This document shows, in pieces, positions 20,597 to 22,777 of a DNA stretch of 24,000 nt. Under the pieces are notes generated by a model that had not been told where the DNA came from, ran no database searches, and was given only the letters and a program-made list of their open reading frames with translations. Each line of letters opens with the position of its first letter. The first letter of the stretch is position 1. Made by a program: the position numbers and the translations under genes. The DNA comes from Thermanaerothrix solaris (GTDB taxonomy: Bacteria > Chloroflexota > Anaerolineae > Anaerolineales > Anaerolineaceae), in NCBI RefSeq assembly GCF_032334255.1, contig NZ_JAUHMF010000001.1, positions 1,766,366 to 1,790,365 on the forward strand, in the 5' to 3' direction.

Positions 20597-20624
20597 TTGA
20601 CACACCGCCCAGAATCGGTATAAT
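20597..20624 (+). promoter_or_regulatory. consensus sigma70 promoter for tRNA-Lys
   Basis: TTGACA (20597-20602), 16-nt spacer, TATAAT (20619-24), 25 nt upstream of the tRNA 5' end. Confidence 0.65.
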
Positions 20625-20648: not shown

Positions 20649-20721
<73 letters not shown>

Positions 20722-20759
20722 CCTCATAATTTGAACCTTATCAACCCGCAAGTTCTAAA

Positions 20760-20867: not shown

Positions 20868-21338
20868 ATGGTTGCTCTTCCCACTCTAATCCCCCTTTCC
20901 GAAGCCGCCCGCAAGTATGGGCTGGACGAGGCTCGCTTGCGTGACTTGGTGGAGAAGGGTAAAATCCGAGCAGGAATATTCCCCGGTTCGGATGAGGTGC
21001 TCGTGAGCGAGGATGAGGTGAGAAGCGAAGCCATCCAGGAAAAAGGTCTCCGCAAAGAGGATTTGCCGGAGTATCAGAAGCACGCAGAAAAGCGTGGAAG
21101 GCCTATTTGGATTAGCGAGGCGGCGAGGAGATATGGTATTCCACACCAAACAATTATTCGGTGGGTTAAGTGTGGTTATATAAAACAATTGGGTGTAGAT
21201 AGAAACAAAGTTCTCATAGACGAGGCAGATATTGCTTATTGTTCTGAAATATACAAAAAACGCGGAAGACAAGGAAGAGTGTTATTCAACCCTGATGGAA
21301 CACCCTACAAACCAAAAACAGGTCCATTAGCCATGTAG
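20868..21338 (+). CDS. tandem helix-turn-helix DNA-binding protein (excisionase/MerR-type HTH x2)
   Basis: Two similar modules: LIPLSEAARKYGLDEARLRDLVEKGKIRAG...LVSEDEV and WISEAARRYGIPHQTIIRWVKCGYIKQLG...LIDEADI. AT-rich codon usage. No clear Shine-Dalgarno. Confidence 0.62.
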   Translation: MVALPTLIPLSEAARKYGLDEARLRDLVEKGKIRAGIFPGSDEVLVSEDEVRSEAIQEKGLRKEDLPEYQKHAEKRGRPIWISEAARRYGIPHQTIIRWVKCGYIKQLGVDRNKVLIDEADIAYCSEIYKKRGRQGRVLFNPDGTPYKPKTGPLAM

Positions 21339-21366
21339 CGGCAGAAAGCCGCTTTTTTTTATTTTT
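21337..21366 (+). terminator. Rho-independent terminator
   Basis: AGCGGC (21337-42), loop AGAAA, GCCGCT (21348-53), followed by TTTTTTTTATTTTT. It overlaps the TAG stop. Confidence 0.78.
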
Positions 21367-21369
21367 AAT

Positions 21370-21395
21370 CTGCACAAGTATTGACACTTGTGCAG
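21370..21395. promoter_or_regulatory. perfect 10-bp palindrome CTGCACAAGT-N6-ACTTGTGCAG overlapping the -35 box (candidate operator)
   Basis: Read directly. 21370-79 is the reverse complement of 21386-95. The TTGACA -35 box sits in the centre. Confidence 0.5.
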
Positions 21396-21410
21396 AATTT
21401 ATGTTATACT
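21381..21410 (+). promoter_or_regulatory. strong extended -10 sigma70 promoter
   Basis: TTGACA (21381-86), 18-nt spacer ending in TGt, then TATACT (21405-10). Confidence 0.62.
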
Positions 21411-21416
21411 CCTCAT

Positions 21417-22173
21417 AGCACCTTTCCAAACCACCTGCTAACTGCCCCGACAAATACAACGCCCCGCCGGGCGTTGTGCGCCCGACAGGGCGCTCCGTGA
21501 GCCGTGTGGGTGCACGCTCACGGTCGAGGCAAGCAAACCAACTGCTCACCTCATCTGCGATTGTAGCATGAGATGACAGCCCTCTGCAAGCCTCTCACAA
21601 GGAATGTGATTTGCAGAGGGCTTTGTGTTTCCCGTGCGGTGTTGGCTCAAAGCCTTTCAGGCGGCAGGTGCGTGAGGGCGGGTTCAAGTCCCGCCCGCCT
21701 GAATTCCGTTTTTGCCACGCTAACGTCGGCCGTGTAGGGAGGCGGGAGCGGGGCTGAGTCATCAGCACCTGGCGGGGCAAGGGACGGGGAGCCCTTGTCT
21801 GACGGAGCGGCAGGTGAGACCGGCGGAAGCCTGCCGGGGGACGTGACAGCCGGGAGAGACCGGCACATTCAGCACCTTACCAGTTGAGCATGATCCATCT
21901 CCAATCCAACCGCCGAAGGTGGGCAGGAGGCTCCCCGATCCTGCGGTGGGTGCAAGTCCCACCCGGTTGGACTGCCAAACCTGTCGGGGTCGTTGCCCCA
22001 ACAACGGGCAGGTGCAGCCCGGCGCACCCTGGCCAGCGCCGGGAAACAGGCAGGGTGACAGCCCGGAGAGACGGGCATGCAGAGGGGTTGGGGCTGAATC
22101 GGCCCAGCGAAGGCGAGGCAGACCCTCAAAGAGCCGGACGTGCGCGAGGGCAACCCCTCTGCCACTTCACCAC
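21417..22173 (+). ncRNA. candidate large structured non-coding RNA locus (unclassified; possibly more than one RNA)
   Basis: It lies between a consensus promoter and a tRNA. It has no credible ORF. It is GC-rich and holds at least 12 perfect stems of 5-12 bp, two T-loop hairpins, three TGACAGCC-hairpin units and a 12-bp long-range stem (22079-90 / 22151-62). Copies of the repeated hairpins differ only by compensatory pair changes. The ends are estimates. Confidence 0.5.
21578..21630 (+). terminator. terminator-like extended hairpin inside the RNA locus
   Basis: A 12-bp perfect stem AGCCCTCTGCAA (21578-89) / TTGCAGAGGGCT (21611-22) carries an inner stem TCACA-AGGAA-TGTGA and is followed by TTGTGTTT. 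Confidence 0.45.
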
Positions 22174-22245
22174 GCGGGAGTAGCTCAACGGAAGAGCGGC
22201 GGCGTCATGAGCCGCAGGGTGAGGGTTCGAATCCCTCTTCCCGTT
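22174..22245 (+). tRNA. tRNA with anticodon CAT (Met, or Ile2 if lysidine-modified), island-borne
   Basis: Manual cloverleaf: acceptor GCGGGAG/TTCCCGT (G1.U72 and G7.U66 wobbles), D arm GCTC-AACGGAA-GAGC, anticodon arm GCGGC-GTCATGA-GCCGC, variable AGGGT, T arm GAGGG-TTCGAAT-CCCTC. No encoded CCA. Confidence 0.7.
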
Positions 22246-22261
22246 CTGGGAGTGAGCAACC

Positions 22262-22777
22262 ATGAAAATCAGAATGCCGCTGGAAGAAGCCGAACGAATT
22301 GCGCTGAAATACGCCGAAATGCTTGCGCCAAAATGCGAGAGGGTCGAGATCGCCGGGAGTATTCGGCGGCGCAAGGCAGAGGTGGGAGACATTGAGATGG
22401 TGGCAAAGCCGCTGCCTGCGTTTGACCTGTTTGGCTCTCCGAATGGCTATCACGATCTTTCCATACCGTTACCAGCGGTCAAGGACGGGCAACGATACAA
22501 GCAGTACACCCTGCCCGAAGGAATACATCTTGACCTGTTCATCGTTTTACCCCCGGCACAATGGGGAGTAATCTTTGCTCTGCGCACCGGCGGAGCAGAG
22601 TTCTCTCGTAAACTGGTCACGGCGAAACGATACGGCGGTTACCTGCCGTCTGCTTACGTGGTGAGAGACGGCGCGGTTCATCGTGTTGATACCGGGGAGA
22701 TCATCCCTACCCCCGAAGAAATTGATTTTTTCAATCTCTGTGAACTGGGCTGGATCAAGCCCGAAGAGAGGAATTGA
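22262..22777 (+). CDS. minimal DNA polymerase X-family (Pol beta-like) nucleotidyltransferase, palm plus C-terminal subdomain only
   Basis: GSIRRRKAEVGDIEMV matches the G-S...D-x-(D/E) NTase motif. HLDLFIV supplies the third carboxylate. FALRTGGAEFSRKLVTAKRYG parallels LyFTGS..FN..lR..A...G of Pol X. The C-terminal PEEIDFFNLCELGWIKPEERN parallels the Pol X terminal sEeeIf..LGL.yIpPe.R motif. Confidence 0.72.
   Translation: MKIRMPLEEAERIALKYAEMLAPKCERVEIAGSIRRRKAEVGDIEMVAKPLPAFDLFGSPNGYHDLSIPLPAVKDGQRYKQYTLPEGIHLDLFIVLPPAQWGVIFALRTGGAEFSRKLVTAKRYGGYLPSAYVVRDGAVHRVDTGEIIPTPEEIDFFNLCELGWIKPEERN

Follow-up and report, generated by a model that had tools for sequence, protein, structure and literature searches.

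Among the least understood RNAs are the large structured ones of phages and mobile elements, such as GOLLD and ROOL, of which few classes are known. Covarying loop pairs in both ROOL and GOLLD form intermolecular bridges, and one GOLLD RNA, env-38, adjoins a Met-tRNA (PMC12286853). Another point of comparison is offered by nutL and putL, which are the first regions transcribed from a repressor-controlled early promoter, the put element of HK022 consisting of two long stem-loops, one of which forms a triplex (PMC9378689). The locus considered here lies in a 24,000-nucleotide stretch of the genome of Thermanaerothrix solaris (contig NZ_JAUHMF010000001.1, positions 1,766,366 to 1,790,365; this whole stretch is referred to as the window, and positions are counted from its first letter). 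Upstream of a tRNA gene with anticodon CAU, tRNA(CAU), and of a gene for a mini DNA polymerase X (Pol X), the region from 21417 to 22173 is a real, conserved, non-coding and heavily folded RNA of an uncatalogued family, which includes two tRNA-like elements, TLS1 and TLS2, and two copies of a short hairpin motif that recurs in phages of several phyla.

A conserved non-coding RNA family

An earlier note, made from the letters of the window alone, had proposed this region as a structured non-coding RNA of unassigned class, and the comparison with homologous loci bears this out. About 20 such loci (designated by L numbers, as are the motif-bearing contigs below) share 70–94% identity with it and come from Anaerolinea, Bellilinea, Chloroflexota metagenome-assembled genomes (MAGs) and metagenomes. 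Scanning genomes with the protein sequence of Pol X recovered Anaerolinea thermolimosa (two loci), Bellilinea caldifistulae, a Bellilinea MAG and a Chloroflexota MAG, all with DNA upstream of Pol X that is 70–87% identical to the window RNA, and about 15 further loci were obtained from a metagenome scan and contig look-ups. When 50,697 phage records were searched by BLAST, the tRNA part alone was matched; three scans of viral contigs returned no homologue of the RNA, and 116 viral-contig matches to a 15-mer were rejected as chance. The RNA family appears, so far, to be confined to Anaerolineae elements.

The folding of the RNA is evident from energy and covariation alike. Relative to dinucleotide shuffles, the minimum free energy (MFE) of the region has z = -8.0 for the + strand and -3.8 for the minus strand, and the 13 stems that the earlier note had listed are all perfectly complementary, including the two of 12 bp at 21578-89/21611-22 and 22079-90/22151-62. 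In an alignment of TLS1 and the module that follows it, M1 (11 sequences, 62 pairs), compensatory double changes occur in 17 pairs vs 8.3±1.5 in column shuffles, none of the 500 shuffles being as high; sliding the partners by 1–3 columns leaves 1–5 double-change pairs, and 97.6% of cells are paired. The corresponding alignment of TLS2 and its module M2 (9 sequences, 52 pairs, two pseudoknots included) gives double changes in nine pairs vs 3.3±1.2, again with 0/500 shuffles as high, 0–2 such pairs in the slid controls and 95.7% of cells paired. Several covarying pairs show the series G-C, G-U and A-U, which is meaningful only for a + strand transcript. As to the repeated GGCAGGTG, its copies were found at 21663, 21809 and 22007, with a single further copy in the remaining 23 kb of the window, and the complementary CACCTGC is present at 21432; their proposed pairing was nevertheless abandoned, since the 5' CACCTGC is not conserved in homologues. 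The GGCAGG(TG) copies at 21809 and 22007 are strands of local covarying stems, and the copy at 21663 lies in the acceptor and linker of TLS1.

The stretch, described earlier as poor in open reading frames (ORFs), is indeed non-coding. Variable alignment columns are spread evenly over the three codon phases (p = 0.93, 0.91 and 0.86), indels among homologues are mostly not multiples of three, and no ORF of the stretch in any of the six frames has a Pfam match. The contrast in base composition noted before was confirmed as well, with 64.5% GC between 21417 and 22173 vs 47–50% for the island around it and 58.8% for the host DNA within the window.

Classification was attempted with Rfam 15, applied to the window at gathering thresholds and at E≤10 and to 13 homologous loci at gathering. 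At gathering, tRNAs alone were matched in the window and in those loci. The model of GOLLD (RF01998), with its conserved 3' domain, has no match at gathering or at E≤10 in the window and none in the 13 homologous loci; ROOL (RF03087) has none in the window at E≤10 and none at gathering in the homologues. A tmRNA was called by neither ARAGORN nor Rfam in the window, and for HEARO/omega RNA, cobalamin and other riboswitches, RNase P RNA, group I and II introns and C4 nothing relevant was found there at E≤10, the remaining matches being at chance level (group-II-D1D4-4, for instance, with 13.5 bits against a threshold of 49 bits). A likeness of AGCCGGGAGAGACCGGC to the B12 box of cobalamin riboswitches was likewise rejected, having no Rfam support. 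This lack of matches excludes GOLLD, ROOL, tmRNA, HEARO, riboswitches, RNase P, introns and C4 as families. The earlier view that the locus is of the GOLLD/ROOL kind therefore does not hold by homology, and it is also at odds with the independent gain and loss of modules described below.

Modules, tRNA mimics and a widespread hairpin motif

The RNA is a modular array in which a 5' hairpin domain is followed by TLS1, M1, TLS2, M2, one or more variable 3' domains and, optionally, tRNA(CAU). The coordinates of these parts, together with those of the surrounding genes and signals, are collected in Table 1.

Table 1. Parts of the RNA region and neighbouring features, in window coordinates.
Feature	Position	Strand	Details
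HTH_17 gene	20868-21338	+	Pfam HTH_17, E=4.7e-9; upstream neighbour of the RNA
Intrinsic terminator	about 21337..21361	+	Hairpin AGCGGCAGAAAGCCGCT, then T-run; closes the upstream HTH_17 gene
Palindromic operator	21369-79/21386-96	n/a	Perfect inverted repeat with 11 bp arms; brackets the -35 box
Sigma-70-type extended -10 promoter	21381..21410	+	TTGACA-18-(TGt)TATACT; 11/12 consensus matches, upstream TG
5' domain	21417..21655	+	Start predicted at conserved AGCACCUU; five to six hairpins; subdomain z = -5.9
5' domain hairpins H1, H2, H3	21456-77, 21478-93, 21495-21523	+	Stems among those listed in the earlier note
H4	about 21524-21553	+	Conserved GCAAG bulge
Further 5' domain hairpin; H5	~21553-21575; 21578-21622	+	
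TLS1, tRNA-like minihelix	21656..21703	+	Acceptor stem 7-8 bp, 13-nt linker, T arm with canonical UUCAAGU loop
Module M1	21704..21866	+	Hairpins 21749-57/21762-71, 21775-83/21792-21800 and 21808-15/21829-36 (covarying), then motif copy 1
Motif copy 1	21840-21866	+	GACGUGAC-A-GCCGG-GAGAGA-CCGGC-A; 3' end of M1
Pyrimidine-rich linker	21867..21905	+	Contains AGCACCUU(A/G)(C/A)CA, direct repeat of the 5'-end sequence; conserved in the family
TLS2, cloverleaf-like tRNA mimic	21906..21972	+	MFE cloverleaf; acceptor 21906-12/21964-70 (7 bp), small D-like hairpin
TLS2 anticodon-like arm	21923-27/21940-44	+	Stem GCAGG/CCUGC; loop with conserved UCCCCGA
TLS2 T arm	21945-50/21958-63	+	Unusual loop UGCAAGU
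Module M2	21973..22078	+	Outer stem 21980-85/22007-12 around compact H-type pseudoknot 21986-89/21996-99 + 21991-95/22002-06
M2 hairpin, 8 bp	22018-25/22036-43	+	Loop ACCCUG (22026-31) pairs with CAGGGU (22051-56): second pseudoknot
Motif copy 2	22057-22078	+	GAC-A-GCCCG-GAGAGA-CGGGC-A; 3' end of M2
Variable 3' domain	22079..22162	+	Closed by perfect 12-bp stem (inverted repeat); z = -2.7
tRNA, anticodon CAU	22174..22246	+	ARAGORN and Rfam tRNA, 61 bits; optional array member
Mini Pol X gene, 171 aa	22262..22777	+	First operon ORF; starts 16 nt past the tRNA; Pfam DNA_pol_B_thumb, E=3e-6

In the 5' domain, H5 retains its pairing with different sequences among homologues (CCCUCUGC/GCAGAGGG vs CACCCUGC/GCAGGGUG), as does the hairpin before it. 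The two tRNA-like elements had been missed in the earlier note. TLS1 has neither a D nor an anticodon arm, carries an A at the discriminator position and has no encoded CCA; compensatory changes are seen in both its acceptor and T stems, and the minihelix shape also appears in the MFE fold. It aligns end to end with the mascRNA-menRNA model of Rfam at 21.2 bits (E=0.19), below the threshold of 42.5 bits, and has a mascRNA-type tRNA-like shape, with the acceptor on the T arm and a T loop of 7 nt, without membership of that family. For the linker that follows M1, RNAalifold pairs CCUU (21875-78) with GAGG (21739-42), columns that are invariant, so that covariation is silent on this contact. TLS2 also has no encoded CCA, and one of its acceptor pairs changes between G-C and A-U in four of nine sequences; an extra T-arm-like hairpin accompanies it in five loci (L193, L251, L238, L179 and L154).

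The tRNA(CAU), placed correctly by the earlier note, is called by both ARAGORN and Rfam, which together find only one other tRNA in the window (20649-20723); it, too, has no encoded CCA. Its anticodon loop, GUCAUGA, is atypical in having a G at both 32 and 37, position 1 forms a G1-U72 wobble, and the three G-C pairs of initiator tRNAs are missing, so that Met, Ile2 or another identity are candidates. ANN-reading tRNAs normally have A37.

A separate observation concerns the loop of an M1 hairpin (21784-21790), which is complementary over 7 nt to the anticodon-like loop of TLS2 at 21931-21937 (CGGGGAG/CUCCCCG). This complementarity is found in the window, in L188 and, over 6 bp, in L002, and it shifts in concert to GGGACAG/CUGUCCC in L004 and to another pairing of 6 bp in L001. 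The two loops match only weakly in L190 and L256, and the match is lost in L215 and L261, the latter apparently a recombinant.

Homologues differ in which of these parts they possess. L003, L244 and L251 lack M1 altogether, and only a shorter version of it remains in L154 and L005; L193, L179 and L154 lack the 5' domain, and another module stands in place of M2 in L261, L215 and L190. The core of the 3' domain is kept in L188, L005, L256 and L261; L002 has no such core, and L001, L003 and L004 have other modules in its place. Since parts are gained and lost independently, the RNA is better described as a concatenation of modules than as one fixed ornate fold, which fits units that work separately. 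The same holds for its downstream partners. The earlier note had proposed co-transcription with the tRNA and the mini Pol X, and a terminator search indeed found no + strand terminator between the promoter and Pol X; the link is nevertheless not obligatory, as tRNA(CAU) is confined to the window, L188, L002 and L005, being absent in L001, L003 and L004, and other genes take the place of Pol X in L188, L193, L179 and L154.

Both M1 and M2 end in GUGAC-A-GCCNG-GAGAGA-CNGGC-A, referred to here as the GACA-hairpin motif. In its full form, (R)A-[ACNNN]-variable-[NNNGU]-GAC-A-[GCCNG]-GAGAGA-[CNGGC]-A, it consists of two helices, P1 and P2. A scan with a 22-mer containing three free positions matched at least 120 metagenome contigs (L124-L243), only seven of which, among the matches listed, belong to the Anaerolineae family, and the motif was not present in 1.07 Mb of unrelated viral contigs. 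The two free stem positions of P2 are complementary in 121 of the 124 matches listed, and neighbouring copies that fall outside the search pattern keep GACA, a covarying stem of 4–5 bp and a GANARA loop, with up to 3–4 copies in tandem in L169 and L192. As for P1, the NNNGU before GAC finds a perfect upstream ACNNN in 87 of 107 loci vs 55±5 in shuffles, with 30 different 3' strands and more than ten combinations of inner pairs; a purine precedes the upstream partner in 94% of cases vs 55% in shuffles, and the length of the insertion within P1 ranges from 3 to about 90 nt. The reading of the GA/GA junction as a K-turn was rejected on grounds of topology, the helix that would have to serve as the C helix being a self-contained hairpin.

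In about half of the loci the motif precedes a start codon by 5–30 nt, and in others it precedes a tRNA by 4–18 nt. The proteins encoded downstream of it fall into 32 Pfam families, and all-against-all clustering of the ORFs of 120 motif loci revealed no shared neighbour family. A protein partner encoded next to the motif was rejected on the same grounds, the downstream genes being diverse and HNH genes occurring in few phages only. Terminators are not enriched upstream of the motif (3/92 loci vs 4/184 control windows). In cultured phages it occurs in unannotated intergenic DNA, namely in those of Escherichia (mEp390), Cronobacter, Klebsiella, Ralstonia, Pseudomonas and Stenotrophomonas, and the same is true of phages of Rhodobacter, Planktothrix/Synechococcus and Bacteroides (examples are L263:2480-2525, L266:1801-1824, L267:1801-1825 and L268:1801-1829). 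The mEp390 copy lies in an intergenic space 3' of a cI-like repressor gene, in the same orientation and ahead of the next genes, which include ParB, at roughly the position of nutL in lambda; it was found in one of 5,426 E. coli genomes, again unannotated. In Ralstonia GP4 and a Planktothrix phage the motif stands upstream of HNH genes near terminase, and in Cronobacter CS01 it precedes two small ORFs, in a gap between genes that lies about 800 nt 5' of the gene for the small terminase. A second, slightly divergent copy in mEp390 (GUGAC-A-CCUCG-GAAGAGA-CGAGG-A, at about 2288-2312) falls within the annotated hypothetical ORF gp36 (L263:2229-2471), which may accordingly be a mis-annotated RNA region.

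With Rfam 15, 40 motif loci (20 searched at gathering and 20 further at E≤5) yielded tRNAs and one unrelated HEARO only, the motif itself being absent from that release. The HEARO, at L160:340-580, is a bona fide IscB omega-RNA with no adjacent long ORF, about 180 nt upstream of the motif with a terminator between them, and is probably coincidental. ARAGORN also predicts tmRNA-like genes in two phage-like contigs: L233:506-918, about 20 nt downstream of the motif, and L223:709-1053, about 200 nt downstream of it and past a tRNA-Ala, in a contig with 12 tRNAs. The sequence of the motif was not found in the searchable literature and may be among the roughly 10,000 unnamed candidates of PMC10690425. 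Under such constraint across phyla, the motif probably contacts a universal host machine or is catalytic.

Promoter, operator and mobile-element context

The operator-flanked extended -10 promoter is as the earlier note had described it (Table 1), lying directly 3' of the terminator of the HTH_17 gene and with its -35 box inside the operator palindrome. The promoter, TTGACA-N17/18-TGnTATACT, is kept in every homologue that reaches that far, and the start context CATAGCACC is retained alongside it in all elements, whereas the palindrome around the shared -35 TTGACA differs in each. A perfect palindrome of its own, centred on the -35 box, is seen in the window and in L002, L003, L004, L215, L244, L251, L256 and L261. 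Different palindromes around a constant TTGACA are the pattern expected of element-specific repressor operators. Each element thus looks as if it had its own repressor specificity (heteroimmunity), for which the adjacent HTH_17 protein is a candidate repressor.

The mini Pol X of the window matches the thumb of Pol lambda and the palm of Thermus PolX. It consists of palm and thumb only, which is the size of Pol X from African swine fever virus. With 967 relatives at E≤1e-5 in public data, the mini Pol X is a widespread, uncharacterised replication/repair module of mobile elements. In the loci examined an SSB gene commonly comes next, and across loci the neighbours include genes for a tyrosine integrase, HTH proteins, Pol X, SSB, ParA-like ATPases and an FtsK/HerA-type ATPase, with a gene for the DnaN beta clamp also near the RNA in L248. 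No capsid or terminase gene was seen among the neighbours of the homologous loci, so that "integrative mobile element" is a safer term than "prophage"; of the phage-like island proposed before, the integrated mobile element stands and the phage nature is unproven. Several homologues have a Cys-rich ORF of 67 aa, zinc-ribbon-like (CxxC...CxxC), between the RNA and Pol X (L002:5790-5998, L003, L004, L244:2795-2998 and L261:2295-2498), which is missing from the window.

The island starts right after a tRNA-Lys(CUU) gene (20649-20723), whose own upstream promoter (20597-20624) matches the sigma-70 consensus perfectly (12/12). A tRNA gene about 1–2.5 kb upstream of the RNA is present in most loci (the window, L001, L003, L004, L005, L244, L251 and L261), and where these tRNAs were typed they are Lys-CUU, Cys, Lys-UUU, Asn and Arg. 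As related elements adjoin tRNA-Cys, Lys(UUU), Asn, Arg and others, many tRNA genes serve the family as integration sites.

Possible roles and described counterparts

The reading we favour, with somewhat better than even confidence, is that of a modular leader RNA of a repressor-controlled early (replication) operon, processed by RNase P and RNase Z at its tRNA-like elements. The region would form the long non-coding 5' leader of an early operon in integrative mobile elements that lie beside tRNA genes in Anaerolineae. Once the repressor leaves the operator, the strong promoter would transcribe the array into Pol X and SSB, and the host RNase P and RNase Z would see TLS1, TLS2 and the tRNA as tRNA-shaped substrates, in keeping with the acceptor stacked on the T arm, the discriminator base and the lack of an encoded CCA that they have in common. 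The predicted cuts would release stable folded RNAs of about 240, 205 and 200 nt and small tRNA-like pieces, and would also fix where the Pol X/SSB mRNA begins, while the modules that bear the motif may act on the expression of the unit that follows, as the motif appears to do in other phages. Several points weigh against this reading. The T loop of TLS2, UGCAAGU, is non-canonical, and the Rfam tRNA model (RF00005) matches neither TLS1 nor TLS2 at E≤10. Cleavage by RNase P and RNase Z is predicted from shape alone. T-arm-like hairpins near the motif in other loci are weakly, about twofold, enriched (8/78 upstream vs 6/156 control windows). The stems of H1–H4 are invariant in 14 sequences, and the loops variable; covariation is therefore uninformative on these hairpins, though compatible with the structure. 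Finally, a contact between the loops of M1 and TLS2 is possible and would favour a single integrated fold.

Such a fold is the essence of the main rival, a large ornate RNA that acts as a whole in the manner of GOLLD or ROOL, possibly as multimers joined by kissing loops, with the tRNA-like parts being structural. We regard it as unlikely. In its favour, the size (about 760 nt), the mobile-element setting and the place upstream of tRNA(CAU) echo GOLLD and ROOL, which often occur near tRNA islands (PMC12286853), and the complementarity of the M1 and TLS2 loops, changing together in three lineages (those of the window type, L001 and L004), is its best support. This partly covarying complementarity is also the only lead towards homo-oligomeric nanocages of the kind that ROOL and GOLLD form. 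The same pairing is, however, weak or broken in the four other loci named above, functional-looking homologues do without whole modules (M1, the 5' domain in L193 and L154, and a 3' domain that is variable throughout), and the GOLLD and ROOL models have no match even at the relaxed threshold. Slightly less probable again is a purely cis-acting leader that tunes elongation in the early operon, as in the antitermination of HK022 put or lambda nut, with the GACA hairpin as an element that binds RNA polymerase or a factor. Like nutL and putL (PMC9378689), the region is the first to be transcribed from a repressor-controlled early promoter; the mEp390 copy sits roughly at the nutL position, downstream of a cI-like gene (phage promoters being unmapped), the motif occurs in tandem copies, and its near-invariance across phyla is in keeping with a partner that is itself conserved universally, such as RNA polymerase. 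Against this, a length of 760 nt is far beyond what such a role needs, terminators are not enriched around the motif, and in most loci it lies 5–30 nt from a start codon or tRNA, a closeness that elongation control does not need. The motif was also not found in the 22–30 kb region of HK022, in a record where put is unannotated and was itself not located, and the architecture of put differs (PMC9378689).

Two further explanations were considered. A replication element, in which a G-rich transcript forms an R-loop or primer in the style of ColE1 RNA II for the Pol X, SSB and clamp genes, would account for the position directly upstream of Pol X and SSB (and of DnaN in L248) and for the positive GC skew of +0.13 to +0.16 over 21600-22400. 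It is nonetheless improbable, since conservation obeys RNA pairing, with G-U intermediates, pseudoknots and T-loops, rather than the pattern of DNA repeats or iterons; a search of the locus showed neither iterons nor an AT-rich unwinding region, and in many phages the motif is remote from replication genes. Both a leader that controls elongation and a primer or R-loop role remain less likely than the processed leader. That the region codes for protein, or consists of functionless decayed tRNA genes or attachment-site scars, is excluded for practical purposes. ORFs of up to 134 codons are open within the GC-rich stretch, and successive integrations beside a tRNA gene can leave tRNA 3' fragments, but coding is contradicted by the lack of codon periodicity, the frame-breaking indels and the missing Pfam matches, and neutral decay would not preserve acceptor stems that keep both strands through compensatory changes, nor covarying modules, across about 20 loci.

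The locus adds to the large RNAs of mobile elements a well-supported family that covaries strongly, has a defined promoter and occurs in cultured hosts (Bellilinea caldifistulae and Anaerolinea thermolimosa). Its unusual anatomy is directly testable, as it offers internal tRNA mimics that should be substrates of RNase P and RNase Z, pseudoknotted modules and natural variants from which modules are deleted. It also points to a widespread and apparently undescribed phage RNA motif, which is near-identical across phages of Proteobacteria, Cyanobacteria, Bacteroides and Chloroflexota and stands just upstream of unrelated genes or tRNAs; given its presence in easily handled phages (E. coli mEp390, Cronobacter CS01 and Ralstonia GP4), standard reporters can probe its function. 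More tentatively, there could be an as yet undescribed class of RNAs in mobile elements, with this locus as its richest member, in which tRNA mimics are combined with copies of a two-helix motif shared across phyla; the motif itself could represent a new class of functional phage RNA, for example a self-cleaving or processing element or a binder of RNA polymerase, the ribosome or RNase P, and the array may in addition assemble by covarying kissing loops like ROOL and GOLLD.

When set beside the described systems, the RNA resembles GOLLD and ROOL in extending over several hundred nt, in its many helices and pseudoknots and in its place in mobile, phage-like DNA adjoining tRNA genes. The setting of GOLLD, in prophage or phage DNA near tRNA genes, recurs here in an element beside tRNA-Lys with tRNA(CAU) downstream, which is a matter of context and not of membership. 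In contrast to both families, the window RNA has freely gained and lost modules, internal tRNA mimics and no covariance-model similarity to them, and the resemblance is one of context only, that of a mobile element near tRNAs. The put and nut elements are likewise short two-helix RNAs that closely follow early promoters, in some cases as two copies, and engage a universally conserved machine (PMC9378689). The put RNA is about 70 nt long, comes directly after PL and PR, binds the zinc-binding domain of the RNA polymerase beta' subunit and suppresses termination. The GACA-hairpin motif differs from put in sequence and architecture and usually stands next to start codons or tRNAs; given the two long stem-loops and the triplex reported for put (PMC9378689), it does not look like put.

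With the self-cleaving ribozymes of phages (hammerhead, twister, pistol and hatchet) the motif shares its small size (a minimum of about 45 nt, in L133), its intergenic position in diverse phages, its tandem copies, about 15 near-invariant nt at a helix junction and in a loop, and an insertion of variable length in one helix; it differs from them in having neither an Rfam ribozyme match nor a known catalytic core sequence. For TLS1, the class of comparison is that of tRNA-like processing signals, including the tRNA punctuation of polycistronic transcripts. The RNase P-processed phage RNAs P4 CI and P1/P7 c4 sit in early-operon leaders, as TLS1 does. What sets the window leader apart from these is that it has no match to C4 (RF01695) and carries two different mimics along with an optional real tRNA. 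The only Rfam similarity of TLS1 is to mascRNA of MALAT1 and MEN-beta; TLS1 is a minihelix of acceptor and T arm inside a longer transcript, which is the shape that RNase P and RNase Z need.

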